From the NCBI GenBank assembly GCA_041659445.1, contig JBAZYG010000002.1:180001-212000 (forward strand): a stretch of 32,000 bases of DNA, read 5' to 3'. The first letter of the stretch is position 1. Every line of letters starts with the position of its first letter. Below are positions 4,495-27,096 of this stretch, piece by piece. The translations under genes and the position numbers were made by a program. This stretch comes from Candidatus Saccharimonadota bacterium (GTDB lineage Archaea > Nanobdellota > Nanobdellia > Pacearchaeales > GW2011-AR1). Below the pieces are notes generated by a model, which searched no databases, was not told the DNA's origin, and was given only the letters and a program-made list of their open reading frames with translations.

Positions 4495-5256
4495 ATGAAG
4501 AAAAGAGGGCAGGTTACAATCTTTGTTATTATTGCAATTGTAATAATTGTTTTAGGGGTTTTGGCTTTTTTTCTTTATCCAAAATTAAAAATTTCAACAG
4601 GATTTAATACTGAAAACCCAGAATTATTTTTGCAAAATTGTGTTGAAAATGATTTAGAAAATTTAATTGAAACTCTTTCTTTGCAAGGTGGAGAATTCAA
4701 TCCTCAAGGATATACTATTTATCAAGATGTTAAAATAAAATATATTTGTTATACTTCTGATTATTTTACTTTAGGTTTAAAACAAGTTCCATTCATTAAG
4801 AGATTTGTCGAGGATGAAATTAGTGTTCAGATAAAACCGAAAGTCGATGAATGCTTTGATGATTTAGTTTTAAAATATCAACAAAAAGGTTATGAAGTTA
4901 GTTCTAAAAAAGGAAATATTCAAACAGAAATTCTTCCTGAGCAAACTTCAATTGATTTAATTGGTTATAATTTAACAGTTTCTAGAGGAGAAAACGAAAA
5001 CAGATTTAATTTGTTTGTTATAAATTTGGACAATAATCTTTATGAACTTCTAAATATTGCTGAACATATAGTTAGTTGGGAAAATGAATTTGGAGACGCA
5101 GATACACTTTCGATCATGATGTTAAAAAAAGACATTCGAGTGAATAAAATATTAAGAGATGATGGTTCAAAAATTTATATAATTGAAAATAAAAAAACAA
5201 AAGAGGCATTTCAATTTGCTTCAAGAAGTTTGGTTTTCCCTGCAGGATTGTTTTAA
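4495..5256 (+). CDS. Exported hypothetical protein with a class III (type IV pilin-like) signal peptide
   Basis: N-terminus MKKRG|QVTIFVIIAIVIIVLGVLAFFLY: a basic n-region, then Gly-Gln, then an uninterrupted hydrophobic stretch of about 22 residues. It is the first gene after a TTTATAAA box at -29. Confidence 0.65.
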   Translation: MKKRGQVTIFVIIAIVIIVLGVLAFFLYPKLKISTGFNTENPELFLQNCVENDLENLIETLSLQGGEFNPQGYTIYQDVKIKYICYTSDYFTLGLKQVPFIKRFVEDEISVQIKPKVDECFDDLVLKYQQKGYEVSSKKGNIQTEILPEQTSIDLIGYNLTVSRGENENRFNLFVINLDNNLYELLNIAEHIVSWENEFGDADTLSIMMLKKDIRVNKILRDDGSKIYIIENKKTKEAFQFASRSLVFPAGLF

Positions 5257-5257
5257 A

Positions 5258-7402: not shown

Positions 7403-7408
7403 ATAAAA

Positions 7409-9925
7409 ATGAATAAAATAATAAAAACAAAAAATTCAAAACAAAAAACATTTTCATTAATAGAATCTCTGATTTTGATAATTGCAATTTTTGCATTTGC
7501 CTGGATGATTGGCTCTGAATTTAAAACAGTAAGTGCTGCGACTTGTGTCCAAGGTCCAATAGGTAATGGTCTTCAAGAATGTTCTAATGAAGGAGACTTG
7601 GCCTGTGATAATAATCAAGATGTGGGGGCTATACTTGAATGTATTCAACCAACATCGGGTATAGCAGGAGTAGATCCTAATAAATTATATTGGAATGGTT
7701 ATGCCTTGTGTGATGATAATGAAATTTGTTCAAATTGCGAATGTGCTCCTATTGAAGAAGAAACTCCAGTTATTGATGAACCAGAAGTAGAAGTGCCTGA
7801 AGAAGAAAGCGGAGAATCTAATCCTAATGGATTAAAAAGTTGGGAAACTGCTCTTATTGGAGATATAACTGGAATAGTTCTAGAAAAAGGTAGCGAGTTA
7901 TTATTTAGTTCTGGAAGAGCAGGAACAACTGGAGGTGAAGCAGCAGCGCAAACAGGAACAGAAGTTGCAAGCGGAAGTAGTAGTGGTTTTTTAGATTCAT
8001 TTATAGGAGTTCTTGGAAAAGGGGGGGAATCTGTAGCAGGAAGTATTGGGGGAGCAATCGGCTCTTCATTAGGTGTTATTGCAATGGCTTGGGCAGCATA
8101 TAGTGGAATAGTTTATTTTTTAGATGCAATGGGCGTTGCTTGGGAAAATTATCATACTCTTGAACAAACTGCACTTTACACTACTATTGGAGTTTCAGCA
8201 TTGGGTGTTATTTACGGAGTTCTTCTTTATGTAGGTATTTTAGCAACAATTCCCGGAGCAGGTTGGATTGCAGCAGCAATAATTATTGTTGTAACTGCAA
8301 TTGTAGCAGCTTTTACATATCAAGATTTTTCACTTGAAACTTTTACTTATATTGTTCAACCATGGAAAGCTCCTTATGGAGGAGAAAGATGTGAAAAATG
8401 TAATAAATTAGATTATGGATGCAATGAATATCAATGTCATTCTTTTGGTGCTGCTTGTGGAATTGTAAACAAAGGAACACAAGATGAAAAATGTGCATGG
8501 TTAAATCCCGACGACCATTTATCTCCAGATATTACTTTAAATCAACAAGTTTTAGATGAACAAGATTTAAAATCAAAACCACTTGATATTACTCTTCCAA
8601 GTTCAGAAAAAGGTTTTGAAATATTACCTAAATCAGGAGAAGAATGCATCGCATCTTTTACAGAGGTAAAAATTGGTTTAATTACAAATGAATTAGCAGA
8701 ATGTAAATTTGATTTAAATCGTTCAAAAGAATATAACAATATGTTAAGCTACATGGAAGAAGGAAATTCATTAATTTATAATCACACATTAATCATACCT
8801 GCTGCAGGAGCACCAAGTACATCTGCTTTAGAAAATTTAGGAATTGAATTAGAAAACGGATTACCAAAGTATTTATTATATTTCAAATGTCGAGATATGA
8901 ATGAAAATACAAACAATGCGGATTTTATAATTCAATTTTGTATTGAAGAAGGTCCAGATACTCATGCACCTGTTATTAAAGGAACAAGTGTTACAAATCC
9001 AGCGTATATTTCTAATAATCAAACTTCTGCAGAAATAGAAGTTTACACAAATGAACCTGCAGATTGCAAATGGGATTTTGAAGATACAAGCTATGATAGA
9101 ATGACTTATAATATGACTGATTGTTCTTCACAACTTCAAGATTATTTAGTAGGATATAATTATGGATGCAAAGTAAATTTAACAGGAATTAAAAAAGAGC
9201 AACAAAATAAATATTATTTTAGATGTAAAGACCAACCTTGGTTAAGCACAGATGAAGAACATTTAAGAAATCCAAGTGGACAATCTTATGTTCAAATTTT
9301 AACTGGAACATCAAGCTTATTAATTGATTCTTTAAAAGTAAATGATAAAGACAAAGGTTCAATAATAAAAGATTCAACATCACCAGTTCAAGTTAGATTA
9401 GTTGCAAAAACTTCAAATGGTGCAGAAGAAGGAAAAGCAAAATGTAAATATTCTTTTGATGGTTTTGAAGATTGGTTTACAAATGGCGGACAATTCTGGC
9501 AAGGAACAGATGGATTCAGAGTTGAAAATTATCAAGATTTATTTTTAGATGCAGGAAATTATAATATTTCAGTAACGTGTTTTGATATTGGTGGAAATGT
9601 TGCATATGATTCTATTGAATTCAGTGTTGAACAAGATCTTCAAGCACCAATAATAACAAGAGCTTATTTTGAAGAAGGATATTTGAAATTAATTACAGAT
9701 GAAGAATCATCATGTGTTTACTCTTTGTTTAATGAAGGATGCAATTATTTATTTGTCGACGGAAATGAAATATCAACAACAGATGGAATTAATCACCTTG
9801 TTGAATGGAGCACAGAAGCAGAAATGTACATAAAATGTAAAGATGAATATGGAAATCTTCCAGAATCTGGACAATGTTCAATTCAAATTTTAAACTCTGA
9901 AAATTTTGAAGAAGAAAGTAATTAA
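7409..9925 (+). CDS. 838-aa multidomain surface/membrane protein: pilin-like N-terminus, Cys-rich module, acidic linker, Gly-rich multi-TM block and four Ig-like repeats
   Basis: The N-terminus KQKT|FSLIESLILIIAIFAFAWMIG resembles the prepilin FTLIE motif. A Cys-rich module spans aa 46-112, an acidic linker aa 115-135, and Gly/Ala/Ser-rich hydrophobic helices aa ~215-305. Four ~100-aa repeats each contain xCK[FWY]... and ...[FIT]xC[KRF]D. Confidence 0.7.
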   Translation: MNKIIKTKNSKQKTFSLIESLILIIAIFAFAWMIGSEFKTVSAATCVQGPIGNGLQECSNEGDLACDNNQDVGAILECIQPTSGIAGVDPNKLYWNGYALCDDNEICSNCECAPIEEETPVIDEPEVEVPEEESGESNPNGLKSWETALIGDITGIVLEKGSELLFSSGRAGTTGGEAAAQTGTEVASGSSSGFLDSFIGVLGKGGESVAGSIGGAIGSSLGVIAMAWAAYSGIVYFLDAMGVAWENYHTLEQTALYTTIGVSALGVIYGVLLYVGILATIPGAGWIAAAIIIVVTAIVAAFTYQDFSLETFTYIVQPWKAPYGGERCEKCNKLDYGCNEYQCHSFGAACGIVNKGTQDEKCAWLNPDDHLSPDITLNQQVLDEQDLKSKPLDITLPSSEKGFEILPKSGEECIASFTEVKIGLITNELAECKFDLNRSKEYNNMLSYMEEGNSLIYNHTLIIPAAGAPSTSALENLGIELENGLPKYLLYFKCRDMNENTNNADFIIQFCIEEGPDTHAPVIKGTSVTNPAYISNNQTSAEIEVYTNEPADCKWDFEDTSYDRMTYNMTDCSSQLQDYLVGYNYGCKVNLTGIKKEQQNKYYFRCKDQPWLSTDEEHLRNPSGQSYVQILTGTSSLLIDSLKVNDKDKGSIIKDSTSPVQVRLVAKTSNGAEEGKAKCKYSFDGFEDWFTNGGQFWQGTDGFRVENYQDLFLDAGNYNISVTCFDIGGNVAYDSIEFSVEQDLQAPIITRAYFEEGYLKLITDEESSCVYSLFNEGCNYLFVDGNEISTTDGINHLVEWSTEAEMYIKCKDEYGNLPESGQCSIQILNSENFEEESN
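8621..9898 (+). repeat. Four tandem ~100-aa protein-level repeats in the C-terminal half of the 838-aa protein
   Basis: Each unit carries a paired-Cys pattern: AECKFD...YFKCRD, ADCKWD...YFRCKD, AKCKYS...SVTCFD, SSCVYS...YIKCKD. Confidence 0.6.
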
Positions 9926-9944
9926 ATATTTAAGAAAAATGAAA

Positions 9945-9950
9945 GGAGGT
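9945..9950 (+). promoter_or_regulatory. Shine-Dalgarno GGAGGT, 9 nt upstream of the internal operon gene at 9960
   Basis: Read directly. Operon-internal genes would need an SD or coupling, whereas first genes look leaderless. Confidence 0.55.
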
Positions 9951-9959
9951 AAAAAATAA

Positions 9960-10493
9960 ATGGTTAAAAAAAATAATTCTTGGTTATTATGGGTTGTTTT
10001 AATCGTCGCTGTTGTTGCAATAATTTTAAGTGCAATTGCAATTTCTAAATCTAATAATATAACAGGAAATAGTATTTTTGATTTTTTTAAAAAATCCTCA
10101 ATTTCAACAAATACTCAAACTCAATCTAAAGGTTTGTTAGCTGATGCGTATTTAGCTTCAGGAAAAAGTTCTGAATCTTTGAAAAATTATGAAGCAGTTT
10201 ATGATGAAAACGGAGAATTAATTTATGAATTGCTTGATGATGCAACTTATTTTAATATTGGAAATACGTATGAACTAATTGAAGATAATAATGGTGTTTT
10301 TCTTAAGTCAAAAATTACAGGATTAATGGTTCCAGGACCAGATCCCGCAGATTGTAAACCAAGATGTACTACAAATGATATATGTACACCCAATGGGCTT
10401 TATTGTAATACTCCTATAACATGTAAAGAAACACAAAAAAAGAATCATTGTCGTTGGCCTAGTAAATTAGGGGGAGAAAGTTCAATAGATTAA
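9960..10493 (+). CDS. Membrane-anchored or secreted small protein with a Cys-rich C-terminus
   Basis: N-terminal hydrophobic helix MVKKNNSWLLWVVLIVAVVAIILSAIAI. C-terminal six-Cys segment CKPRCTTNDICTPNGLYCNTPITCKETQKKNHC. A GGAGGT Shine-Dalgarno lies 9 nt upstream. A T-rich terminator follows. Confidence 0.65.
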   Translation: MVKKNNSWLLWVVLIVAVVAIILSAIAISKSNNITGNSIFDFFKKSSISTNTQTQSKGLLADAYLASGKSSESLKNYEAVYDENGELIYELLDDATYFNIGNTYELIEDNNGVFLKSKITGLMVPGPDPADCKPRCTTNDICTPNGLYCNTPITCKETQKKNHCRWPSKLGGESSID

Positions 10494-10528
10494 TTTCTTT
10501 TTTTATTCTTTTTCTTTTTTTATTTTTT
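10494..10528 (+). terminator. Oligo-T termination tract inside the pilin-like locus
   Basis: TTTCTTTTTTTATTCTTTTTCTTTTTTTATTTTTT lies immediately after the stop at 10493. Archaeal RNAP terminates at T-runs. Confidence 0.5.
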
Positions 10529-10535
10529 CCTAAGA

Positions 10536-10543
10536 TTTATAAG
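10536..10543 (+). promoter_or_regulatory. TATA box (TTTATAAG), 29 nt upstream of the ATG at 10565
   Basis: Same spacing as at 4466, and 24 of 32 positions identical to that region. It is preceded by an oligo-T terminator. Confidence 0.55.
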
Positions 10544-10564
10544 TTCTAATTTCTTTTAAAATTC

Positions 10565-11041
10565 ATGAAGAATAAAAGAGGTTATTTAGAAATTTCTTTT
10601 GGAATGATTTTTACAATTATTTTAATTATTGCATTTATTGCATTTGCATTTTATGCAATTCAAAAATTCATTTTTTTTCAAAAAGATTCTCAATATAGAT
10701 TATTCCTAGAAGATTTTAAATCAGACGTGGATAAAATGTGGAAAACAACTTCAGGTTCACAAGAAGTTAGTTATAGATTACCAAGCTCAATAAAACAAGT
10801 TTGTATTACTCGTAGTTGTTCTGATTTAGGTTTTGAATATAATTGTTATTCACCAGATGATAATTTAGTTTTCAATAGTTCTAAAAATAATTTTGAAAGC
10901 ACTTATATTTCAAATTTAGATATTGAAAAGATTTTAGGAAGTAAAAAAGTTTATTGCTTTGATGTAATTGATAATCAAGTTTCAATGACTTTGATTAAAG
11001 AATATAATTCTGATAAAGTTTTGGTTTTAAAAATAAAATGA
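10565..11041 (+). CDS. Exported hypothetical protein with a class III (pilin-like) signal peptide
   Basis: N-terminus MKNKRG|YLEISFGMIFTIILIIAFIAFAFYAI. It shares K[RK]GYLEISF with the next gene. A TTTATAAG box lies at -29. Confidence 0.65.
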   Translation: MKNKRGYLEISFGMIFTIILIIAFIAFAFYAIQKFIFFQKDSQYRLFLEDFKSDVDKMWKTTSGSQEVSYRLPSSIKQVCITRSCSDLGFEYNCYSPDDNLVFNSSKNNFESTYISNLDIEKILGSKKVYCFDVIDNQVSMTLIKEYNSDKVLVLKIK

Positions 11042-12000
11042 AAATAAAATCTTTGAAAAAAAACAAGAAAGGTTATTTGGAAATTTCTTTTTCCTGGATT
11101 TTTGCTTTTATCGTCGGAGCATTTATTTTATTTCTAGCTATTTTTGCAGTAACAAAATTAATCAAAACAGAATCAACAAGTTCAGATGTTGAAACTTCAA
11201 GACAAATCGAAGTTTTATTAAGTCCTCTTGAAACTTCTTTTGAAGAAGGAAAATTAACAACCCTTTCAACATCAGTTGATTCAAGAATTTTTTCAACATG
11301 TTCAGCGTCAGGAGATTTTGGTAAGCAAACTATTTCTGTAAATCAAAAAGTTTATGGAAAATGGTCAGACACAAATACTGAAATAGAATTTGAAAATAAG
11401 TATTTGTTTTTAGATAAAAATAATGAAGGGAAAATATTTTATTTATTTTCAAAACCTTTTGATTTTGATTTCAAAGTAGCAAGTTTAATTTATTTAATTC
11501 CTTTAGAGAAAAAATATTGTTTTAAAGGAGATATCCCTGAAGAGATTTCAGAAGAATTAGAGCAAATAAATCCTCCTAATGTTTTTGTCGAGGATTCAGA
11601 TAATGATTGTTCTGGAAATGAAATCCAAGTTTGCTTTGGAAATCCTGATGAAAGTTGTGAAATTTCTGTTGATGTTTTTGAATATGCTGTTATAAAAGAA
11701 AATAAAAGAGTTTATTATGAAAACAATAATGCATTATTGTATTCTGCAATTTTTTCAAGTCCTGAATTTTATGAATGTCAAGTTAAGAGAATTATGTTAA
11801 GAGCAAATTCATTAGCAAGCTTATATAAAGATAAATTGTTTTTACCTTCTTTAATAAATTGCAATCCTGAATTAGTATCTGAATTGTCTTATTTTCAAAA
11901 TGTGTTAAGTAATTATGAAGATTCAAATGATTTAGCTTCTGTTTTTTCAAGTGCAGAAGAACTTCAATATAAGAATAATGCGAGGTGTGAAGCATGGTAA
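11038..12000 (+). CDS. Exported hypothetical protein with a class III (pilin-like) signal peptide; N-terminal paralogue of the previous gene
   Basis: N-terminus MKIKSLKKNKKG|YLEISFSWIFAFIVGAFILFLAIFAV. ATGA start/stop overlap with the upstream gene. The ectodomain contains about 9 Cys. Confidence 0.65.
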   Translation: MKIKSLKKNKKGYLEISFSWIFAFIVGAFILFLAIFAVTKLIKTESTSSDVETSRQIEVLLSPLETSFEEGKLTTLSTSVDSRIFSTCSASGDFGKQTISVNQKVYGKWSDTNTEIEFENKYLFLDKNNEGKIFYLFSKPFDFDFKVASLIYLIPLEKKYCFKGDIPEEISEELEQINPPNVFVEDSDNDCSGNEIQVCFGNPDESCEISVDVFEYAVIKENKRVYYENNNALLYSAIFSSPEFYECQVKRIMLRANSLASLYKDKLFLPSLINCNPELVSELSYFQNVLSNYEDSNDLASVFSSAEELQYKNNARCEAW

Positions 12001-12587
12001 AAAAAATTTCAAATTCACGAAAAGCTCAAAACATAAAATCAAAGATTTTGTTAGTTTCGTTTTTTCCGTCGAAAAAAGCTCAAATGAAAATTCAACAAAC
12101 AGCGATAATATTACTAGCAATAACTTTATTATTTGTGTTGGTTGCTTTATTTTTTCTTTCTTTCAAAATTCAAAATTTAAAAAAAGATGCAAATCTAGCA
12201 TCTGAAAAAGATGCAATAATTTTGTCTTCTAAACTTTCTGAAAGCCCTGAATTTTCTTGTCAGCAAGCATTTGGAAACAAAAGAGTTAATTGCATTGATT
12301 CAGATAAATTAATGGCATTAATTGAAAATTCAGACAAATATTCGAATTTTTTCGGAGTTTCAAATATTGAAGTTATTAAAATTCAAGATAAAGAAGAGCT
12401 TTTAACAAAATGCACAGACGCAAATTATCCTAATTGCAATCATTTTTCAGTTTTTGATTCAAACAATTCAGGTTTTAGTTACACTAGTTTTGTTTCGTTG
12501 TGTAGAAAAGTAAACTATCAAGATATTTATTTTTATGACAAATGTGAATTATCTAAATTAATAATAAGTTATGAAAAAATAAGTTAA
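11994..12587 (+). CDS. Exported hypothetical protein with a class III-like signal (KKAQ|MKIQQTAIILLAITLLFVLVALFF)
   Basis: ATGGTAA overlap with the upstream stop. The hydrophobic helix follows KKAQ. A degenerate earlier copy (RKAQNIKSKILLVSFF) precedes it, so the start could instead be the internal ATG. The ectodomain contains 6 Cys. Confidence 0.55.
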   Translation: MVKKISNSRKAQNIKSKILLVSFFPSKKAQMKIQQTAIILLAITLLFVLVALFFLSFKIQNLKKDANLASEKDAIILSSKLSESPEFSCQQAFGNKRVNCIDSDKLMALIENSDKYSNFFGVSNIEVIKIQDKEELLTKCTDANYPNCNHFSVFDSNNSGFSYTSFVSLCRKVNYQDIYFYDKCELSKLIISYEKIS

Positions 12588-12594
12588 AATTTTA

Positions 12595-12682
12595 AAAAAC
12601 AACAAAATGAAAAATAAAAAACTCAAATTAAAATTTGGTAAGTTTCATTTTTCATAAAAACAACAAAATGAAAAACAAAAAA
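12595..12682 (+). repeat. 27-nt direct repeat (one mismatch, 61-nt offset) duplicating the start-codon region of the gene at 12668
   Basis: AAAAACAACAAAATGAAAAA[T/C]AAAAAA occurs at 12595-12621 and 12656-12682. The first copy opens a 16-codon ORF (MKNKKLKLKFGKFHFS*). Confidence 0.6.
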
Positions 12683-13174
12683 GCACAAGAAGAAATGATT
12701 GGATTTGCTTTAATCTTAGTTATAATCGGAGTTATAATTTTGGTTTTTTTCACAATCTCTATTAAAAATAAAACAACTGTTGAAGAAAGTTATGTGACAG
12801 ACAATTTTATTCAAGCTTTGTTACAACATTCAACAGACTGTGCAGAAAACTATGAAACAGATTATTTAGATTTTAGAAGATTGATAAATAAATGTGCAAA
12901 TAGTGGAACAGGAAAATGTTTTCAATCAAGTTGGACATATTGTGAATCTTTAGAAAAAAATTTGAACAGTACTTTAAAGAATTCATGGCAAATTAGTTCA
13001 GATAGTTATTACAAAGCCTATGTTTTGAAAATAAATAATAAAGGAAATGAATTATTAACTATATATGATAGTGCGAATAAAACTGAATTAACTGATGTAA
13101 AAAGTCAATTTAATTCTAAAGGTTCTGTTCAAAATTTAGGGGAAATTGATATTTATTTAGATGTTTATTATTAA
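12668..13174 (+). CDS. Exported hypothetical protein with a class III (pilin-like) signal peptide
   Basis: Start set at the ATG at 12668 (MKNKKA|QEEMIGFALILVIIGVIILVFF) rather than the non-ATG start at 12635 in the track. The ectodomain contains 4 Cys. Confidence 0.6.
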   Translation: MKNKKAQEEMIGFALILVIIGVIILVFFTISIKNKTTVEESYVTDNFIQALLQHSTDCAENYETDYLDFRRLINKCANSGTGKCFQSSWTYCESLEKNLNSTLKNSWQISSDSYYKAYVLKINNKGNELLTIYDSANKTELTDVKSQFNSKGSVQNLGEIDIYLDVYY

Positions 13175-13913: not shown

Positions 13914-16313
13914 ATGAAAAACGTTTTTAAGAAGATTGTTGCTATTAGTGCTAGTGTATTAATGACTGGCTTCACTGCAGGTATTGCAGCAGCAGCAAGT
14001 TTTCCAGCTCCATTCGTTCAAAGCGGTGTAGCTGACGTAGCTATTGTTTATGGTACAGGTACTGGTGTTTCTTCAGTTGATTTTACTCACGCTGGAAACA
14101 TCCAAACAACTTTGGGTGAATCTATGCCAAGTACAGGAGGAACTCCTGTAGGTGGTGAATCATATAAATTTGAAAAAACATCTACTAAATTCCATTTAGG
14201 TGATAACTTCACAACACTTAGAGAAACATTAACAGATGATCATTTACCTGTTCTATTAGGAGATGGTATCTATGTTGATGATGATAATGATGAATTCGAT
14301 TATACTCAAAAAATCGAAATGAATGCATCAGTATTATCTATGTTCTCTGATAGTGATTATGATGACAGTGCACCTACAGTTGGATTTAGAATAGCTTCAG
14401 GATATAATGTCTTGAACTATACAGTTACTTTTGTTGACCAACCACTTATGTCTGATTTAGTTACTTCAACTTTACCTATAATGGGTAAAGAGTACTATGT
14501 TTTATCAAACAGTACAAGCGGAGCTAATAATATTTTAACATTATTAGATTCAGCTGATAGTGCTATTGTATCAGATGCAGAAGGAGATAGTATAACACTT
14601 ACTGCTGGTGGGAAAACTTATGTTGTTACTGTTCCTTATATAAGTTCAACAGAGGTGAAATTATCAATTAATGGAGAAACTACTAACACATTAAACGAAG
14701 CTGAAACTCAAAAATTATCTGATGGTTCATACGTTGGTATTAGAGATATCATGTATAACGCTCACGATACTGGAGTAAGCCAAGTAGAGTTTAGTATAGG
14801 ATCTGGTAAATTAAAAATTACAAGTGGTTCTGAAATCCAAATTAATGATAATATCATAAACGGTATTACTGCTGTAATAACAAATAGTAGTGCAGCTGCA
14901 ACAACACTTACAAGTATTGAACTTGAGTGGAAGACTGATGATGATACATTCATCACAGAAGGTAGTGAAATTACAATGCCAGGATTTGGAATTGTAAAAC
15001 TATCTTACACTGGACTTACTTTCCCTACAGAAGAGGAATTCACTGTTGAGCAAGGTTCAGATACCTACATAATGCTTAACGACTTCCCAGTTAAAGATGG
15101 AACTATAGATATTCCATTATTATACGGAAGTGCAGGTGGTCCTTACTCTGGTTTAGGTAAAGATGCAACTAACAAATTAGTTACAAGCAATATTACTGGT
15201 TCATCTGTTCCTTTAAAATTCGATAAAGATACTGATGAAATGTTTGTTGTTACTTATGAAACTACAACAGAATGTGAGTCATATGTATTAAAGGCTACAT
15301 CATTCGGAGTAGATACTGCAAATAACAATCAAACAACTATTCAAAGGTGGAAAGACGGAGCATGGACAGATGAAAGAGATGTAAAAGCAACAGATACTTT
15401 CTCAATTGGTAGTGCAGAGTTAGGTGTTCAATATGTTGAAAGATCACCAGGTAATTTTGTAAATATTACTTCAAACAGTTCAAGTACTAAGTTTAACATA
15501 CTTTGTTCTGATAAAGGATTAAAGTTATGGTTGCCTTGGACATATACTGCTGGTTCTATTAACATGAGTTATAAAACAGGAGCAATTAACTTGACTGCAA
15601 TGGGAGATGCCTCTGAAAACTATTCTGCTGGTTTCAATGGTACTAATTGGTATCTTCAAATGCAAGAAGAAGATAAAGATGGAAATATTGCAGCTGGAGA
15701 TCAATGGAATATCTCATTAGGTTGGGATAGTTCAACTACTGCTGAACCACAAGTCTCTGACTTGAGAGGAGAAGATGTAACTGCTGTTAAACTTGACTCT
15801 GATAGTACTGACTATAGAAGCTTCATGTATTCTGCTCTCGCAACAGAATTCATATGGCATCAACCTAGTTCAGACCAAGATAGTATAGATATACTATATC
15901 ACGGAGATGAAGTTGCTGCAGATGTTTATATTACATCACCAGAAGCTACTACTACTGGAACAAGTTCATTAGGAAATGTTCTTGTAAAAGATAGCGAAGT
16001 TGCTAGCGTACAATCAAAGAACTTAATCGTTGTTGGTGGAAGTTGTATTAACTCAGTTGCTGCTAATTTAGTTGGTGGTAGCTATTGTGGTCCAAGTTTC
16101 ACAACTGCAACAGGTGTTGGAGCAGGACAATTCTTAATCCAAAGTTACGGCGATGCCTATACTACTGGAAAAGTTGCTCTATTAGTTGCTGGTTACAACG
16201 TTGATGATACTGCTAACGGTGCTACATACTTGAGAACAAAGACTGTAGATACAACTGCTGGTAAGAAGTACATTGGTACATCTTCAACAGAAGCTACACT
16301 TCAAGTTGCTTAA
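13914..16313 (+). CDS. S-layer-like major surface protein
   Basis: Signal peptide MKNVFKKIVAISASVLMTGFTAGIAAAA. The N-terminal FPAPFVQSGVADVAIVYGTG...VD..AGNI and C-terminal NLIVVGGSCINSVAANLV...GKVALLVAGYNVDDTANGATYL resemble the paired N/C modules of archaeal S-layer proteins. It is Thr/Ser/Gly-rich with many N-x-S/T sequons. Codon usage differs from neighbouring genes. A strong oligo-T tract lies downstream. Confidence 0.7.
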   Translation: MKNVFKKIVAISASVLMTGFTAGIAAAASFPAPFVQSGVADVAIVYGTGTGVSSVDFTHAGNIQTTLGESMPSTGGTPVGGESYKFEKTSTKFHLGDNFTTLRETLTDDHLPVLLGDGIYVDDDNDEFDYTQKIEMNASVLSMFSDSDYDDSAPTVGFRIASGYNVLNYTVTFVDQPLMSDLVTSTLPIMGKEYYVLSNSTSGANNILTLLDSADSAIVSDAEGDSITLTAGGKTYVVTVPYISSTEVKLSINGETTNTLNEAETQKLSDGSYVGIRDIMYNAHDTGVSQVEFSIGSGKLKITSGSEIQINDNIINGITAVITNSSAAATTLTSIELEWKTDDDTFITEGSEITMPGFGIVKLSYTGLTFPTEEEFTVEQGSDTYIMLNDFPVKDGTIDIPLLYGSAGGPYSGLGKDATNKLVTSNITGSSVPLKFDKDTDEMFVVTYETTTECESYVLKATSFGVDTANNNQTTIQRWKDGAWTDERDVKATDTFSIGSAELGVQYVERSPGNFVNITSNSSSTKFNILCSDKGLKLWLPWTYTAGSINMSYKTGAINLTAMGDASENYSAGFNGTNWYLQMQEEDKDGNIAAGDQWNISLGWDSSTTAEPQVSDLRGEDVTAVKLDSDSTDYRSFMYSALATEFIWHQPSSDQDSIDILYHGDEVAADVYITSPEATTTGTSSLGNVLVKDSEVASVQSKNLIVVGGSCINSVAANLVGGSYCGPSFTTATGVGAGQFLIQSYGDAYTTGKVALLVAGYNVDDTANGATYLRTKTVDTTAGKKYIGTSSTEATLQVA

Positions 16314-16443: not shown

Positions 16444-17040
16444 ATGAAGAAGATTAAAACAAAATCTCAAGAAGAAAAAAAACAAAAAAGAAAACAATTA
16501 ATCATTGGGTTGATTTTAGTTTTTGTAATGATAGCAAGCACGTTTGGAATTGTGATGAATTCTTTTGGAGAAAAATCAAATTCAAATGAAATAATAAATT
16601 ATAACGGGGTTGAATTTATACATCAAAATAATTATTGGGTTTTTTCAATAGAATCTTATAATTTTGCTATCTTAAATAATCCACAAGAATTAGAAAAATT
16701 TCAATTTAAAGGTTCAAAAACTTCTATAAAAGATTTAAGCACTTATGTAAATTTGCCTTTATATATTCAATCAAATGATTATTATCTAACAAATATAATA
16801 ACTCAAGATTTTCAACCTTTTGTTGAGAGAATCCAATATGCTTGTTTAGAAAATAACACAGATTGCCCTGAAGATTATCCTATAAAAAATTGTCAAAATA
16901 ATTTTATTATAATTTCATATTCTGAGAATTCAACAAGTTTAAGACAACAAGACAATTGTATTTTTTTAGAAGGAAATTCAGAAGAGTTAGTCAATCTTAC
17001 AGATGTTTTTGTTTTAAAGACATTCAGGATTAGAGAATAA
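16444..17040 (+). CDS. N-terminally anchored hypothetical protein (paralogue A)
   Basis: A Lys-rich N-terminus is followed by the TM helix LIIGLILVFVMIASTFGIV. It shares NYNGVEF and YNFAILNNPQELEKFQFKG motifs with the next gene. Confidence 0.6.
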   Translation: MKKIKTKSQEEKKQKRKQLIIGLILVFVMIASTFGIVMNSFGEKSNSNEIINYNGVEFIHQNNYWVFSIESYNFAILNNPQELEKFQFKGSKTSIKDLSTYVNLPLYIQSNDYYLTNIITQDFQPFVERIQYACLENNTDCPEDYPIKNCQNNFIIISYSENSTSLRQQDNCIFLEGNSEELVNLTDVFVLKTFRIRE

Positions 17041-17069: not shown

Positions 17070-17723
17070 ATGAATAAAAGAAAGAAAGAATCAAAAGAAC
17101 AAAAAAAAGACAAAGAAGATTCTATTTTAAAAGAAAAAAATGAATCTAAAAAGCATCAAAGAATAATTAAAATTGTTATAATATTTTCTTTGGTTGTTGT
17201 TGCTTTAATTTTAGTAGCATATTTTTCAGTAAATGCAATAAGAAATTATAATTATAATAATGTTAAATTTGAAACTGTTCAAGAAGGAGATTTAATTCTT
17301 TATCACACTTCAATACCTGTTTCTTATGAAGGTCAAGTAGTTCCTTATAATTTTTACTTGAGAACAAATCCAAGACAGCTTGTTAAAATGAATTTTGAAG
17401 GAGTTGAAGATTTTGCATTATACAAAAATGCAGTAATCAATTTTGAAAAAGATTTTAATTGTGAAGGAGATGGTATTATTGCAATAGCAAATTTAGTTCA
17501 ATTGCATCAAGCAATAGGAATTAATTTAATAACAGATGAAAATGCAACTTGTGATGAATATTCTCGATATTTATATCTTTATTTAAGAGAAGGAAATGAG
17601 ACAGAAATAATTCAAACTGGAAAATCTTGTTATGATTTAGTTATTTCAGATTGTAAAATTCTTCCATCAACAGAAAGAATTATGCTCGAAATATTTTCAA
17701 AGTATAATGAAATAATTGAATAA
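17070..17723 (+). CDS. N-terminally anchored hypothetical protein (paralogue B)
   Basis: A Lys/Glu-rich N-terminus is followed by the TM helix IIKIVIIFSLVVVALILVAYF. It has NYNNVKF and YNFYLRTNPRQLVKMNFEG motifs. A TTTATAAA box lies at -29, immediately after the upstream stop. Confidence 0.6.
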   Translation: MNKRKKESKEQKKDKEDSILKEKNESKKHQRIIKIVIIFSLVVVALILVAYFSVNAIRNYNYNNVKFETVQEGDLILYHTSIPVSYEGQVVPYNFYLRTNPRQLVKMNFEGVEDFALYKNAVINFEKDFNCEGDGIIAIANLVQLHQAIGINLITDENATCDEYSRYLYLYLREGNETEIIQTGKSCYDLVISDCKILPSTERIMLEIFSKYNEIIE

Positions 17724-18269
17724 TTATTTTTTATTTTTTTTCTTATTTAATAAAGATTTTTTGTAAAGAAATTTTAAATCTGAATAAACTGGAATTTCTT
17801 TTATCTTGAACATTTTAACTTCTAAAAACCAAATTAAAATAACAAATAAAGTACTTCCTAAATACCAAAATAATTTATGTGTGAAATCAAACCATGAAGA
17901 ATCTGAAATATTCATCAAACTTAAAACAAAAATCCTGATTAAGTTTATTGCAAAAAATATTCCAAATGACAATAAAATCATTTCAATTCTTTTTTTAGTT
18001 TTGATGTTTGGAACTGACAAATTCAAAATCAATAAGAATGAATATGCAGAACCAGCAATGCAAGCACCAATTATTTCAATTGCAATTCCGTTTACAAAAA
18101 TAGTGTTTTCAATTAAACTTGGGTTATAAAAAAGATTCAATAAAAAAAATGTCGGATAGACTGTTAAAGGAAGAAATATAAAGTAAAACAAATTAAAACC
18201 AAAAAAACCTACAATCACAAGAATTAAATATCGAATAATTAAATTCAAATAAGGTTTTTTTTCTTTCAT
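17724..18269 (-). CDS. Short archaeosortase/exosortase-family-like polytopic membrane protein
   Basis: 181 aa with about 5 TM helices. It has IIGAC(70)IAGSAYSFLL, AINLIR(112)IFVL and FTH(131)KLFWYLG. The Cys-then-Arg order in successive helices is the hallmark I associate with exosortase/archaeosortase. Assignment is by motif only. Confidence 0.55.
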   Translation of the reverse strand: MKEKKPYLNLIIRYLILVIVGFFGFNLFYFIFLPLTVYPTFFLLNLFYNPSLIENTIFVNGIAIEIIGACIAGSAYSFLLILNLSVPNIKTKKRIEMILLSFGIFFAINLIRIFVLSLMNISDSSWFDFTHKLFWYLGSTLFVILIWFLEVKMFKIKEIPVYSDLKFLYKKSLLNKKKNKK

Positions 18270-18318
18270 AAATTAATCAAGTAAAAATCCTTTAAATAAA
18301 TTGGGATTATTGAAAAGA

Positions 18319-18558
18319 TTAATGTTCTTCTAATTTTTTTTCAATTTCAGAAAGTAAATTCAAAGTTTTAATTACATGACAAGGGCTTTTTGGAGAACTA
18401 TTTATTCTACAAAAATATTTTCCTTTATTTTTAGAATTAATAATTTCTGCAGGAATTATACCTGTTTCATTATTCGAATTTTCTCGATTAAAAAAATATA
18501 CTGTATAGTTATCACAACTCAAATTTTTGCATTCAATATATTCTGTTATTTCTGTCAT
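18319..18558 (-). CDS. Small hypothetical protein (79 aa, 4 Cys)
   Basis: The start lies 1 nt after the upstream stop (TAAAATG). Cys are arranged as C-x4-C ... C-x9-C-H, a possible metal site. The C-terminus is acidic. Confidence 0.5.
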   Translation of the reverse strand: MTEITEYIECKNLSCDNYTVYFFNRENSNNETGIIPAEIINSKNKGKYFCRINSSPKSPCHVIKTLNLLSEIEKKLEEH

Positions 18559-18559
18559 T

Positions 18560-19033
18560 TTATTCCTGTTCGTTTGTTGGATTTAATTCAAGATAATTCT
18601 GATAAGCTCTTTCCCAATCATTTGATGTTGGAAAATAGTTTGTTGCACTATCTTGAATTCCCATTAATGAATGTATTCGGTATTGTTCTTTTATACTTAA
18701 TCCATTTTTATCTGAATCAATTGCTTGAAGTAAAAAATCTTTATGTGATTCTTTGATTGAATTTTCAATTGAAGTCTGTTTTGTTTTTTTACGAAATTCT
18801 TTAAATTGTTTAGGTGTCCAAATATCTAATTGAAAGCCAAAGGCTGCTATATATATTCCAAATATTCCACTCCAAATTGAATTTAAACTAGTTTTTGTGT
18901 TATTAATTTTTCTAGAATCTTTATTTTGTTTTGACAACTTTTCATTTAATTTATTATATGCTACAAATCCAAAAGGCACAGCCAAAGAAGCATTTCCTAT
19001 TATTTTTTTTGTTCTATCTGATAATTTTTTCAT
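18560..19033 (-). CDS. Hypothetical membrane-associated protein (157 aa)
   Basis: The start lies 1 nt after the upstream stop (TAAAATG). Hydrophobic segments are ASLAVPFGFVAY and IWSGIFGIYIAAFGF. No known motif recognised. Confidence 0.55.
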   Translation of the reverse strand: MKKLSDRTKKIIGNASLAVPFGFVAYNKLNEKLSKQNKDSRKINNTKTSLNSIWSGIFGIYIAAFGFQLDIWTPKQFKEFRKKTKQTSIENSIKESHKDFLLQAIDSDKNGLSIKEQYRIHSLMGIQDSATNYFPTSNDWERAYQNYLELNPTNEQE

Positions 19034-19034
19034 T

Positions 19035-19352
19035 TTAATTTTTTAAAGTTTTTTTAATTATTTTTTTTTCATCAAAAAATAAATCATAAGCCCATTTTGG
19101 AAGAATATTTGAAAGAAAATCTGAACGAGAAATATAGAATAAATCTGGTTGGTTTCCAGCTAACGCATATGTGTTTAGGGTTGGAAAATGTTTGTAATTA
19201 TTGGAAGTTCCAATTGTGCTTTCATCAAAATATTGAACTATTTCATTTTTATGGTATTCTGCATATCTTTCTTCAACAGGTAAAACTTGTCCAATAACTA
19301 ATTTTTCTAAATCAATTAAAATTGGACACCAATCTTCTTCGCCGTCTCCCAT
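19035..19352 (-). CDS. Hypothetical cytoplasmic protein (105 aa)
   Basis: Start set at the ATG at 19352 (MGDGEEDW...), 1 nt after the upstream stop (TAAAATG). The track start at 19382 would overlap the upstream gene by 29 nt. Confidence 0.55.
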   Translation of the reverse strand: MGDGEEDWCPILIDLEKLVIGQVLPVEERYAEYHKNEIVQYFDESTIGTSNNYKHFPTLNTYALAGNQPDLFYISRSDFLSNILPKWAYDLFFDEKKIIKKTLKN

Positions 19353-19353
19353 T

Positions 19354-20985
19354 TTATCTTCTGTAAACTCGTACAGCAACAATTATAATTGCAATAACCA
19401 GAATTAAATTCAATAAAATTATTCCGCCAAGTTTCCAATTTTGTTTTATCCAATCTGCAACTGGAAGATTAGAATCTTTTATTGTAACTCCAATAGGTTG
19501 TTTCAAAAGCAATTCATTACTATCAGAATAAACTTCTAAATTGAAAATTTGATCTCCAATAGAATCTTTAACAGTGTCGAAAATCAATTCAACTTCTGCA
19601 CTTTCTCCAGCTTTAATTGTTATAGCTTCTTCAGCATTAGAATTTAAACTTGCCCATGTTTCGTAATTCTTTGGTTTAACAACATAAGTCACGTCTTTAT
19701 CACTTGGATTTGTAAGTGTAGCTTTAATTATTAAATCTCTTCCTGCAATAGCTTCTTCAGAAACCATTTCTGCATTAACAACAGGAACAATCTTTAATGA
19801 GCATCCTTCTACTTTAAAGTTAATTTGGAAAGTTGCAGTGTCGTCTTCACTGTTTTCAAAAATATCACTGTCTTCGTCGTAAACTTCAAATTTAATATTA
19901 TACCATTTATCTTCTAAGTTTTTTGGAATAGTAAATGTGTAAATTAAATTAGCATTATCATAAGAATCAATATCTCCTAATTCAATTTTGTCATTAATAC
20001 TCAAGTCATTACTATAAACAATAACACTAACTTCTTGTTGATCAGAATCGCCAATGTTCCAAGCTTCTGCATTTATTGTAATTTCTTGATTGCATGTAAG
20101 AATAGTGTTTTCCAATGTCTTATCATTTAATAATTCAACACCATTCATTTCAAAGTTGTTTAATAAAACAAAACTTTCATCTGCTCTTACTTCTGTTTCT
20201 GAAGTATCAGAGCTACAAGAATATTCGTTATCGTAAACTCCTGCATTGCTGTCATCAATTTGTCCCTTTGCTTTAACATAAAGAATAGCATTTTCATCTG
20301 CAAATTCATCAATATTATCATTTAAAATAAAAGAGAATGTAACTGTTTCGTCGTCTCCTTCTTTAAGTTTAAAATCACTTAATGTGTCATCTGCTATTTT
20401 TTTGCCTCCAGTTGTGTACAAAGCCCATTCAATTTCAACATCTTGAATATCCCAGTCTCCAGTATTATCTACATTTACTTCAACTTCAACTTCATCAAAA
20501 GGATACCAATAATTATCATCATCTCCAAATCCATTAATAACTTTAACATTTTCAATGTTTAATTCTAATGCTCCTGGATTTGCAGTATTTTCACAATAAT
20601 CTACAGGTTCAAATGAAACAGTTTGTGATTCAACAAGTGCGTTATTTGAACTATTAGCTACTTTTATAATAGCAGTGTAAGTTTTTCCAAATTGAAAATT
20701 AAAATTAGAAGCATTGTAAGTTGCAGTTATGGATTTTGTTGAATCTCCTGTAATTGTTATTTCAGTTACATTTGGAGTAAATGCAATTGTTTCTGCATTG
20801 CTTATTGATATATTATATGTTCCAGTTTCACCCACAAAGTTAACATCAAAAGTGAAAGAAGTTCCATCAGTTTGTAATAAACTAGGTTGAATATTTGTAA
20901 TTGTTACTGCAGCGCTTGCTAATCCTAAGAATGCAATCATTAAGAAAACACTAGTCAATCCAAACAAAACTGTTTTTTTGTTCAT
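19354..20985 (-). CDS. Secreted repeat-rich acidic surface protein with a C-terminal TM helix plus basic tail (candidate sortase-type sorting signal)
   Basis: Signal peptide MNKKTVLFGLTSVFLMIAFLGLASAAV. Beta-rich Asp/Glu/Asn/Thr-rich modules of the CARDB/Ig-like kind. The C-terminus is ...NWKLGGIILLNLILVIAIIIVAVRVYRR. Confidence 0.65.
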   Translation of the reverse strand: MNKKTVLFGLTSVFLMIAFLGLASAAVTITNIQPSLLQTDGTSFTFDVNFVGETGTYNISISNAETIAFTPNVTEITITGDSTKSITATYNASNFNFQFGKTYTAIIKVANSSNNALVESQTVSFEPVDYCENTANPGALELNIENVKVINGFGDDDNYWYPFDEVEVEVNVDNTGDWDIQDVEIEWALYTTGGKKIADDTLSDFKLKEGDDETVTFSFILNDNIDEFADENAILYVKAKGQIDDSNAGVYDNEYSCSSDTSETEVRADESFVLLNNFEMNGVELLNDKTLENTILTCNQEITINAEAWNIGDSDQQEVSVIVYSNDLSINDKIELGDIDSYDNANLIYTFTIPKNLEDKWYNIKFEVYDEDSDIFENSEDDTATFQINFKVEGCSLKIVPVVNAEMVSEEAIAGRDLIIKATLTNPSDKDVTYVVKPKNYETWASLNSNAEEAITIKAGESAEVELIFDTVKDSIGDQIFNLEVYSDSNELLLKQPIGVTIKDSNLPVADWIKQNWKLGGIILLNLILVIAIIIVAVRVYRR

Positions 20986-21068
20986 TTTAATGTAATCATT
21001 TTTGAGTTACTATGGTTTATAAGCTTTTCTGTGATTAAATATATATAATAAATAACCTATTCAAAACC

Positions 21069-21076
21069 TTTATATA
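21069..21076 (+). promoter_or_regulatory. TATA box (TTTATATA), 29 nt upstream of the ATG at 21098
   Basis: Exact spacing. Confidence 0.55.
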
Positions 21077-21097
21077 ATTTTTTGAATTGTAATTCTA

Positions 21098-21490
21098 ATG
21101 GTTTTAAAAGCAAAGGAAAATACATTCGGTGCATGGGCTTTTTTAATAGGTGTAATTTTAGCTGTGTTGATTGGTATTTTCACTGCTTCTTTTTTATCAA
21201 TAGATTCAATAACAAAATATAGCCCTGAAATTTATGCAATTCTTGTTTTACTTGGAGCAATAATTGGTTTTTCAATAAGAGTTGTTGGAAGAGACGCTCA
21301 GAACTTTTTGATAGCAGGAGTTATTATTGTTATTGTAAGTAAGTTTGGAATGGAAAGTGTTATAAGTTCTTTAATTGGCATTGGAATTGGAGATATGGTA
21401 ACTTCAATTTTTGCAGCTTTGCTTGCTTTATTTATTCCCGCAACAATAATTGTAGCAATAAAAACTTTGTTTTCTGTAGCTAAGATTTAA
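21098..21490 (+). CDS. Small polytopic membrane protein (130 aa, about 4 TM)
   Basis: Four Gly/Ile/Ala-rich hydrophobic segments. A TTTATATA box lies at -29. Confidence 0.6.
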   Translation: MVLKAKENTFGAWAFLIGVILAVLIGIFTASFLSIDSITKYSPEIYAILVLLGAIIGFSIRVVGRDAQNFLIAGVIIVIVSKFGMESVISSLIGIGIGDMVTSIFAALLALFIPATIIVAIKTLFSVAKI

Positions 21491-21541: not shown

Positions 21542-21940
21542 TTAATAATCATCAAAGTCGCTTTTCTTCTTTTCTTCTTTTGGTTGCTCAATTTCTCTTG
21601 GGATTGTAGCAAAAGAAGGTGTTACGATTATAACTTCTCCAAAACCAGCAATACTTCCATTCAATGCTTCAGCTGTTTTCTTTATTTTTGAAATAGCCCT
21701 CTTTAATTCAATTGGGTCTTTCTTTTTTAGGTTTTGAATATTTATAACTGCAATTGTATATCCTTCTCTTAGATAGTTCAAAATCTTTGTTGTATCTTCA
21801 TATTCTCTTAACATAAAAAGTCTTACAAGAATTTTAGCAGATTTTTTTTCTTGGTTTTCTAAATCAATTTCTAAATAGTCTTCTCCAGGAGAACTAGATT
21901 TAGATCCTGACAATGCGTTTCTTAATTTTTTGAATGCCAT
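21542..21940 (-). CDS. sepF: Cell division protein SepF
   Basis: 132 aa. The core ILVRLFMLREYEDTTKILNYLREGYTIAVINIQNL...AEALNGSIAGFGEVIIVTP matches the SepF (DUF552) fold pattern. An N-terminal amphipathic MAFKKLRNALSG is a candidate membrane-targeting segment. Confidence 0.8.
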   Translation of the reverse strand: MAFKKLRNALSGSKSSSPGEDYLEIDLENQEKKSAKILVRLFMLREYEDTTKILNYLREGYTIAVINIQNLKKKDPIELKRAISKIKKTAEALNGSIAGFGEVIIVTPSFATIPREIEQPKEEKKKSDFDDY

Positions 21941-22696: not shown

Positions 22697-22945
22697 TTAA
22701 TTTAGTATTTTAGACATTTTTTCTAATTTTTTTATGTCTTTAAATTCTCCTCTAATCATTAAAGAGACAATATTTTTATTAGTCATGATTTCTGTAAGAG
22801 TTAAATTATAATCTGGAAGATAAAAATCTTTGACAAAGGTATTTTCGTAGTTGATATGTGGCCCGTTAATTAATTTTAGATTATTTTCTTCTAAATAATT
22901 TTCTATTTGTCTTAATCTTTTTTGAGGGTATACTTTTGTTGTCAT
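22697..22945 (-). CDS. Hypothetical protein (82 aa)
   Basis: ORF tightly coupled to the genes on both sides by 1-nt gaps. No motif recognised. Confidence 0.5.
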   Translation of the reverse strand: MTTKVYPQKRLRQIENYLEENNLKLINGPHINYENTFVKDFYLPDYNLTLTEIMTNKNIVSLMIRGEFKDIKKLEKMSKILN

Positions 22946-26001: not shown

Positions 26002-27096
26002 TTATTCTTCTAAGAATTCAATGCCTAATTCTTCTTCGATTTCTCTATGTTTTCTGTCTTTCATTGAATCTTCTTGTCCAAGTATTTGTGAACTTTTAAC
26101 TCCAGTAACAATCAATAAAACTCTAATTGCTTTTGCCATGTCTTCAGAAATTTTTGCCCCCCAAATCATTTTTGCATCAGGACTTAATTTATCTCCAACA
26201 CCTTTTATAATTTCTTTGCATTCATCTAAACTCATATCCGACCCACCAATAATATTTACCAAGGCACCTTTTGCATTTGAAATATCTACGTCGAGCAAAG
26301 GATTAAAAATTGCTTTTTTGACAGAATCTTGTGCTCTATTCTCGCTGTCAGATTCTCCCATACCAATTAAAGAAACTCCTCCGTCAATCATTACTGCTTT
26401 TACATCTGCAAAATCCAAGTTTACTAAACCAGAAGTTGTTACTAATTCTGTTATTCCTTTGACAGCATTTGTTAAAATTTCATCTGCGATTTTGAAAGCA
26501 GTTTGAAGAGGTAATTCAGGTGCTAATTCAAGTAATTTATCATTTGGAATTACAATTAATGTATCCACAACAGATTCCATTCTCTCTAATCCACCGACGG
26601 CATTTTCAATTCTTTTTTGCCCTTCAACTGTAAAAGGCATTGTTACAACACCAATAACCAAAGAACCTTGTTTTTTAGCAATTGAAGAAACAACAGGAGC
26701 AGCACCAGTTCCAGTTCCACCACCCATACCACAAGTAATAAAAATCATATCTGCACCTTCTAATTTTTTCTTTATTTCTGAAGAAGATTCTTTTGCAGCT
26801 TCTTGTCCTATTTTAGGATTACTTCCTGCACCCAATCCTTGTGTTAATTCTTTTCCAATCAAAATTTTGTGATCTGCATTAGCATAAAGTAAATCTTGAG
26901 CGTCTGTATTTATAGCAATTAATTCTCCACCTCGAATTCCAATTTCTCTCATTCTTGAGATTGAATTATTTCCTGCACCACCAATTCCAATTATTCTAAT
27001 TTTTGCAGATTGCTTTTTTATAATTTCTTCAAGTTCCTTGTCAATTTCTAATGTTGGTGATTCATAAGAACCATCTCTTTTGAAAATTTCTGCCAT
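26002..27096 (-). CDS. ftsZ: Cell division GTPase FtsZ
   Basis: IRIIGIGGAGNNSISRM, the tubulin signature GMGGGTGTGAAPVV, and NTDAQDL. 364 aa. Confidence 0.95.
   Translation of the reverse strand: MAEIFKRDGSYESPTLEIDKELEEIIKKQSAKIRIIGIGGAGNNSISRMREIGIRGGELIAINTDAQDLLYANADHKILIGKELTQGLGAGSNPKIGQEAAKESSSEIKKKLEGADMIFITCGMGGGTGTGAAPVVSSIAKKQGSLVIGVVTMPFTVEGQKRIENAVGGLERMESVVDTLIVIPNDKLLELAPELPLQTAFKIADEILTNAVKGITELVTTSGLVNLDFADVKAVMIDGGVSLIGMGESDSENRAQDSVKKAIFNPLLDVDISNAKGALVNIIGGSDMSLDECKEIIKGVGDKLSPDAKMIWGAKISEDMAKAIRVLLIVTGVKSSQILGQEDSMKDRKHREIEEELGIEFLEE

Follow-up and report, generated by a model that had tools for sequence, protein, structure and literature searches.

In a 32-kb stretch of AT-rich archaeal DNA (contig JBAZYG010000002.1; 22-36% G+C), of which the whole 32,000 nucleotides (nt) are referred to as the window, we examined five consecutive minus-strand genes between positions 17,724 and 20,985. 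According to the list of open reading frames (ORFs) and our reading of the sequence, these genes encode proteins of 543, 105, 157, 79 and 181 amino acids (aa). The first and the last make up a predicted C-terminal protein-sorting pair, in which the 181-aa membrane protein (the sortase) would act on the 543-aa surface protein (the target). Between the first four genes lie three junctions that each read TAA-A-ATG, and a 49-nt gap containing TTATTTAAA separates the 79-aa gene from the sortase gene, as had been described in a first-pass annotation made from the raw sequence. The mechanically called ORF of the 105-aa gene begins 10 codons before the ATG used here, at a TTG. The TAAAATG heptamer is about as frequent in the window as expected by chance (25 copies versus 23.3 expected), and the copies at 22943 and 25998 form, by coordinates, one-base same-strand junctions between other ORFs (22697-22945/22947-23174 and 25737-26000/26002-27096, respectively). 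Such junctions reflect the tight gene packing of the genome and are no special operon signal of the locus. Rfam and tRNA scans gave no match in the region.

The exact window proteins are already in GenBank, in a metagenome-assembled Candidatus Pacearchaeota genome (locus tags WC812_04685 to WC812_04725), where the 181-aa protein is named 'pacearchaeosortase', the 543-aa protein 'putative S-layer protein' and the three proteins between them 'hypothetical'. NCBI also curates both named families. The first-pass annotation had taken the system to be undescribed, but the core finding, the sortase–target pair, is already known. A sortase-type system had thus been spotted correctly from raw sequence, and no new kind of system is added. 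What we add is a promoter-like box at a fixed 27 nt upstream of the sortase start codon and, around the pair, a conserved cluster of envelope genes (coordinates are collected in Table 1).

The sortase and its target

The 181-aa protein is a small member of the exosortase/archaeosortase superfamily, as the first-pass annotation had proposed. It matched the NCBIfam hidden Markov model (HMM) NF033505, 'pacearchaeosortase', with 224.6 bits (cut-off 80; E = 7.5e-67), with residues 8-172 aligned to profile positions 2-166 of 167. In agreement, the superfamily signature TIGR04178 was found in residues 65-149 (31.5 bits, cut-off 23). The classical subfamily with the best score was ArtE (TIGR04124; 35.6 bits, cut-off 95), of which the sortase is not a member; this alignment runs end to end (sortase residues 8-153 on positions 6-150 of a 153-position profile). 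Nor were the subfamily cut-offs reached for ArtD (TIGR04175; 18.6 bits, cut-off 125) or ArtB (TIGR04144; 12.2 bits, cut-off 150), and scores against several exosortase subfamily models were far under their cut-offs.

Aligning the sortase with 22 homologs that share 55-63% identity with it showed that Cys70, Arg112 and His131 are invariant in all 23 sequences. These are the Cys, Arg and downstream His that had been noticed at first reading, and in the AlphaFold model they sit in successive membrane helices. The Cys motif had been given as ACxG, but the sequence reads GACIAG, hence AC-x-x-G. A Cys/Arg/His triad has been proposed for the exosortase/archaeosortase superfamily (Haft, bioRxiv 10.1101/2023.06.07.544157), and in Haloferax ArtA Cys173 and Arg214 are essential (PMC9263693). 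The Cys-to-Arg spacing is 42 residues in the sortase versus 41 in ArtA (PMC9263693). We regard Cys70, Arg112 and His131 as candidate catalytic residues, and the sortase as a predicted multi-pass membrane cysteine peptidase of this superfamily.

The sortase has four long hydrophobic segments (residues 5-48, 56-86, 95-122 and 133-154). Its AlphaFold model is mostly helical (helices 6-45, 74-84, 91-121 and 127-153), with a predicted local distance difference test score (pLDDT) of 86.8 and a predicted template modelling score (pTM) of 0.79. A PDB sequence search gave no match at E <= 10, and Foldseek with the model gave none at E <= 0.001 (best TM-score, the template modelling score, 0.33). A rhomboid or CPBP (Rce1-type) protease was also considered; the lack of any Pfam, PDB sequence or fold match argues against this assignment.

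The 543-aa protein is a beta-rich, secreted-type and acidic protein (93 D+E versus 34 K+R) that begins MNKKTVLFGLTSVFLMIAFLGLASA/AV and ends NWKLGGIILLNLILVIAIIIVAVRVYRR. It matched NF033506, 'PACE-CTERM-PROT, putative S-layer protein', with 379.9 bits (cut-off 110), residues 31-543 covering profile positions 116-627 of 627. An FxLYD domain was also detected (25.4 bits, cut-off 23), together with a weak CARDB match (16.2 bits). Residues 4-33 form a hydrophobic segment at the N-terminus, and the predicted signal-peptide cleavage site was placed by the AxA rule.

The C-terminal tail of the target has three parts: NWKLGG, the hydrophobic helix IILLNLILVIAIIIVAV, and RVYRR. Among 74 aligned target tails the consensus is ...G-ITGN-IS-GD-NWYLWGIGALNVILIIIIIIVAVRVARK, and the majority tail reads NWYLWGIGALN, hydrophobic helix, RVARK. 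The Asn of 'LN', which lies inside the tail helix, is invariant. In the window the tail follows a sub-clade variant, NWKL...R[VIT]YR[RK], which it shares with the loci L009, L011, L081 and L082. No PGF-, PEF- or PIP-CTERM signature was present in the tail and no NCBIfam domain model of these types matched. Together with the NF033506 match, the tail alignment bears out the first-pass description of a tripartite tail, distinct from those types, on a surface protein with a signal peptide. A tail HMM matched residues 511-543 at E = 1.5e-13 and found one protein per locus, with a single match in the window. It had been left open that the anchor motif might be unique to this protein and lack a cognate set: the motif does occur once per locus, but it is conserved across orthologs. 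Since there is one tail per locus, the locus points to a one-enzyme, one-target system. One-to-one sorting has been defined as a 'dedicated' system (Haft, bioRxiv 10.1101/2023.06.07.544157), and one tail per locus is the pattern expected of such a system.

The sortase has 963 database homologs and has relatives in 433 species-level genomes. To follow the genes across relatives, 80 related loci, those of the best sortase matches, were fetched and searched with all window proteins by tblastn. Nearly all of these are labelled Pacearchaeota, Woesearchaeota or Nanoarchaeota. In 73 loci the target gene lay upstream of the sortase gene in the same orientation. Of the remaining seven loci, six are on cut contigs with less than ~1.1 kb of upstream sequence, and one (L057) is in a rearranged single-cell assembly, SCGC AAA011-D5. 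As expected of an enzyme of the superfamily, the sortase co-occurs with a cognate target bearing a tripartite tail in these 73 loci. The 543-aa protein is the one substrate that we predict for this enzyme. We consider it probable that the locus is a dedicated sorting pair of one enzyme and one substrate, belonging to Pacearchaeota-type (DPANN) archaea.

Three of the fetched loci are unusual. At L057 (7569-8462), an unrelated segment is fused to the N-terminal side of the sortase ORF and no target lies upstream, likely an assembly chimera or a rearrangement. Two bins with bacterial labels carry an archaeal sortase locus, one a Candidatus Collierbacteria bin (L055, with the neighbouring 198- and 217-aa genes described below) and the other a Vicingus bin (L075, with the target); both are probably mis-binned contigs.

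Both genes of the pair have their own conserved promoter-like boxes. That the sortase gene has its own TATA box had been read from the window, and the comparison strongly supports this: across loci the box is AAATTATTTAAATA, at a fixed distance from the ATG. Of 74 upstream regions, 47, the window among them, have TTTA[AT]A starting at -27 relative to the sortase ATG, and 58 have it starting between -26 and -29; at any other single position it occurs in at most 3 loci. Because the box lies at a fixed short distance from the ATG, a leaderless or near-leaderless sortase transcript is suggested. For the target gene, 60 upstream sequences were collected, and in most of the 30 inspected cTTTATAAACCATAGTAAC lies ~30-38 nt before the ATG; TATA-like words in all 60 peak at this same position. 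The conserved target box cTTTATAAACCATAGTAACTC is followed by a conserved short leader, GAATGATTACA.

The slot between target and sortase

In the 68 loci where both genes were resolved, the target–sortase spacer ranged from 34 to ~3,600 nt. Target and sortase were adjacent (spacer of 110 nt or less) in 14 loci. An opposite-strand gene for a PAP2-family phosphatase (PF01569, 79 bits) was present in 33, of which 13 also had small same-strand ORFs. Small same-strand ORFs alone occupied the slot in 17 loci, and a longer spacer without any ORF of 70 aa or more was seen in 4. ORFs of 55-145 aa directly after the target, found in 31 loci, were mostly unrelated singletons. Since slot contents vary among loci, the three small genes of the window are the local filling of a variable insertion slot. 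The antisense PAP2 gene hints at a lipid-related step tied to sorting. It is absent from the window; examples are L024:7330-7953 (-) and L006:7358-7978 (-).

The first-pass annotation had counted the 105-, 157- and 79-aa proteins as parts of the system, and a five-gene sorting system with three new accessory subunits is what their placement would suggest. Their genes stand between those of target and sortase, joined by one-base stop/start junctions, and small same-strand ORFs directly follow the target in ~31 other loci. However, none of the three had a tblastn homolog in the 80 related loci (0/80), and thus the proposed co-occurrence with the enzyme in other genomes was not found. In L082, the closest relative of the sortase (74% identity), target and sortase are directly adjacent and the small genes are missing, as in the other loci with adjacent genes. 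The single contig that shares small genes with the window, L081, has a different order: target, a 105-like gene, an unrelated 79-aa gene, an 88-aa 4-Cys protein and a 157-like gene. Iterated local HMM searches with the three proteins against all ORFs of 82 loci recovered L081 plus a borderline match in L009 only. As other loci mostly hold unrelated singletons after the target, and one-base junctions are generic in this genome, the accessory-subunit model is already largely refuted by the missing linkage, and we hold it to be highly improbable.

The 105-aa protein is acidic and soluble, the latter as first described, and is nearly an orphan. Its only homolog (68% identity) is on the metagenome contig L081, against which the ratio of nonsynonymous to synonymous substitution rates (dN/dS) is 0.31, equal to that of the adjacent target tail. 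This purifying selection is a point for the accessory-subunit model.

The 157-aa protein had been called membrane-associated, which is only plausible, because its hydrophobic stretch peaks at 1.43 on the Kyte-Doolittle scale over 19 residues, under the membrane-helix threshold of 1.6. It belongs to a family with 29 representatives at E <= 0.001 among 1.84 billion (P0133-P0161), including a homolog of 65% identity; dN/dS against the L081 copy is 0.69. The family shares the C-terminal domain YVDxDxNGLSxxExYxIxxLMGIQDSSKxYxPTxxDWERAY. An EF-hand was considered for the DxDxNG motif and kept as a loose resemblance only, since the spacing is non-canonical and no Pfam model matched. Other members lie in unrelated contexts, on low-G+C contigs (L083 and L086) with neighbours that look like housekeeping genes by translation, and neither a sortase nor a target lies within 5 kb of them. 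A metagenome scan with a narrow alignment of the family returned 7 loci, none of them sortase-linked, and a scan of viral contigs with the family profile found no relative.

The four Cys residues noted in the 79-aa protein are indeed present, at positions 10, 15, 50 and 60. A search of 5.8 billion proteins returned only the protein itself. The four Cys are shared by weak relatives in L081, L009 and L033 (21-33% identity; hmmsearch E = 0.002 to L009), and in L009 and L033 the 4-Cys relative stands directly before the sortase. This placement in a few loci is a further point for the accessory-subunit model.

No family was assigned to any of the three small proteins by Pfam, NCBIfam, PHROGs or PADLOC, and the null results of PHROGs and PADLOC for these proteins and their neighbours do not favour an origin in viruses or defence systems. 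With the 79-aa ORF lacking any significant database homolog, all three annotated merely as 'hypothetical', and the only one of them that was modelled, the 105-aa ORF, yielding a poor and unusable single-sequence structure prediction (pLDDT 36.7), they might be taken for chance open frames in AT-rich DNA. Yet at 25-30% G+C stop codons are frequent, and we estimate that open frames of 79-157 codons are unlikely to arise by chance. The three ORFs also tile the gap exactly with stop/start junctions, two of them, those of 105 and 157 aa, are matched by homologs of 68% and 65% identity with dN/dS under 1, and the 157-aa family spans 29 representative clusters. Chance frames are therefore hardly credible, and the three genes appear to be real. 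Since in the window there is no space for promoters of their own, co-transcription with the target is probable. Taken together, the comparison of loci shows the 105-, 157- and 79-aa genes to be lineage-specific content of the variable slot and not components of the sorting machinery.

Predicted sorting and related systems

By analogy with Haloferax ArtA and from the family model, the Sec pathway would export the 543-aa protein, whose C-terminal helix would hold it in the membrane. The sortase Cys would then attack the polypeptide where the NW[YK]L[WG]G signature adjoins the helix, at the signature or next to it, and the helix and basic tail would be removed. The new C-terminus would pass to a membrane lipid, probably giving a lipid-anchored S-layer-type surface protein.

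The enzyme might instead be a plain endopeptidase that releases or trims the target without lipid attachment, or the target might stay anchored by its helix with the sortase serving turnover only. One-step transpeptidation by the superfamily is unresolved even for ArtA (bioRxiv 10.1101/2023.06.07.544157). In addition, the PssA/PssD lipid pathway on which ArtA substrates depend (PMC9263693) may be missing from these reduced archaea, and neither PssA nor PssD was seen in the window. Against this, the sortase-like Cys/Arg/His set is conserved, and the only characterised archaeosortase couples cleavage with lipid attachment (bioRxiv 10.1101/2023.06.07.544157; PMC9263693). The PAP2 lipid-phosphate phosphatase gene found in the slot of nearly half of the resolved loci likewise hints at a lipid step. 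We judge these alternatives decidedly unlikely.

Several points weigh against a dedicated sorting pair with a lipid-anchored product. The first-pass annotation had named both NCBIfam and Pfam models as a check; the NCBIfam models were matched above their cut-offs, but Pfam Exosortase_EpsH (PF09721) gave no match to the sortase at E <= 1. This Pfam model is less sensitive for the short pacearchaeosortase clade, and a precomputed PF09721 match is carried by 6 of the 120 listed homologs of the sortase. ArtA requires a second Arg, Arg253, and the 23-sequence alignment has no invariant Arg at a matching distance. For cleavage, its site and lipid attachment alike, ArtA is the model from which we extrapolate. 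The tail scan covered 32 kb of the genome, and further substrates may be encoded elsewhere in it. 'S-layer protein' is the curated name of the target, whose role is putative, and an unanchored S-layer-type protein of 799 aa is encoded 3 kb away. Lastly, the literature searched holds no mention of pacearchaeosortase, nor any experimental study of one.

The closest known system is the curated NF033505/NF033506 pair itself. The cut-offs were passed widely, and the size (~175-185 aa), the adjacency of the genes and the taxon (Pacearchaeota, Woesearchaeota and Nanoarchaeota) all match. Nothing essential differs. The window has the tail NWKLGG...RVYRR, in contrast to the majority NWYLWGIG...RVARK, and adds three lineage-specific genes between the pair.

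ArtA is roughly 300 aa long, and the window sortase, at 181 aa, is much shorter and matched no ArtA-type model. The signature abutting the helix is NW[YK]L[WG]G in the window family in contrast to PGF, and one substrate is encoded next door where ArtA has many scattered ones. The window system is also known from sequence alone. Nevertheless, it resembles ArtA/PGF-CTERM sorting (e.g. of the Haloferax volcanii S-layer glycoprotein) in the TIGR04178 signature, the polytopic enzyme, the Cys and Arg spacing, and a major surface-protein substrate with a tripartite tail. A link to cell division may be a further likeness, as ArtA acts at midcell (PMC9263693) and SepF and FtsZ are encoded nearby in the window.

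ArtE is similar to the sortase in its small size and aligns with it over the full length; the difference is the score, well below the ArtE cut-off. The JDVT-CTERM/myxosortase MrtJ system (Haft 2023) also has one target per genome beside its enzyme, and conserved residues inside the helix. However, its fold and catalytic type are unrelated, MrtJ being a CPBP-type glutamic protease and the window sortase a predicted Cys enzyme.

DPANN archaea depend on hosts for lipids, and how they would anchor a surface layer is why these comparative results matter. As starting points they offer the one-to-one pairing, the tail consensus, the fixed-distance boxes, the PAP2-bearing slot, the 4-Cys neighbours and the SepF link.

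The surrounding gene cluster

Further genes recur around the pair, and their order is conserved. Read in the direction of the fetched loci, which is opposite to that of the window, it is SepF, a 130-aa protein, target, slot, sortase, a 217-aa protein, a 198-aa protein and a 799-aa protein (Table 1).

Table 1. Positions of the genes and sequence features in the window, with the number of the 80 related loci in which each conserved gene was linked to the sortase
Feature	Position	Strand	Basis or remark
799-aa secreted protein without C-terminal anchor	13914..16313	(+)	Pfam S_layer_C PF05124, 31 bits (cut-off 23.9); 54/80 loci
198-aa signal-anchored protein, four invariant Cys	16444..17040	(+)	64/80 loci
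217-aa signal-anchored extracytoplasmic protein	17070..17723	(+)	73/80 loci; convergent with sortase, no gap
Pacearchaeosortase, 181 aa	17724..18269	(-)	NF033505 match; 80/80 loci
Promoter-like TATA box of sortase gene (TTATTTAAA)	18291..18299	(-)	22-30 nt before ATG
79-aa four-Cys protein gene	18319..18558	(-)	ORF list
157-aa protein gene	18560..19033	(-)	small family, conserved C-terminal domain
105-aa protein gene	19035..19352	(-)	length counted from ATG
PACE-CTERM protein, 543 aa (GenBank 'putative S-layer protein')	19354..20985	(-)	NF033506 match; 73/80 loci
C-terminal sorting domain of target, residues 511-543	19357..19455	(-)	tail alignment and tail HMM
Predicted Sec-type signal peptide of target (MNKKTVLFGLTSVFLMIAFLGLASA/AV; ...LGLASA/AV)	20911..20985	(-)	read from sequence
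Promoter-like box of target gene (CTTATAAACCATAGTAACTC)	21004..21023	(-)	conserved across loci
Second TATA-like box	21067-21077		seems to belong to the divergent 130-aa membrane-protein gene
130-aa polytopic membrane protein, divergent from target gene	21098..21490	(+)	54/80 loci
SepF cell-division protein	21542..21940	(-)	Pfam SepF 44.7 bits; 48/80 loci
FtsZ	26002-27096	(-)	4 kb beyond SepF

An hhalign comparison (95.4%, E = 1.8e-8) identifies the 198- and 217-aa proteins as paralogs, and the invariant Cys residues of the 217-aa family are C131, C161, C187 and C195. Neither family matched Pfam or NCBIfam, or gave a significant PDB match by profile search; these 4-Cys paralogs may be unrecognised partners of the sorting system. 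The 130-aa membrane protein likewise has no Pfam or NCBIfam family. The 799-aa protein, with 14 N-x-S/T sequons versus 4 in the target, is a second surface-layer candidate, so that one candidate would be anchored and one not.

On a broader reading, the sortase–target pair would be the core of a wider envelope-building cluster of Pacearchaeota-type archaea, which in window orientation runs from an S-layer-domain protein through two 4-Cys paralogs, the sortase, the slot, the PACE-CTERM protein and a polytopic protein to SepF. The 4-Cys paralogs and PAP2 would then take part in anchoring, and the slot would be a hot spot. We regard this extended reading as unlikely. If it were true, small genes of fast turnover in the slot would share their expression with the major surface protein and might, for instance, encode strain-specific factors of the surface or of interactions with hosts or viruses.

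Further from the pair, a plus-strand run of ORFs at 5183-13174 encodes proteins of 739, 838, 177, 158, 320, 197 and 179 aa, none with a Pfam family, and no ORF of at least 80 aa in this run ends in a hydrophobic helix and basic tail. The remaining genes of the window are of the housekeeping kind: primase, PCNA, prefoldin, L37ae, L11, Spt5, FtsZ, FKBP, aIF5A and an M50 protease.

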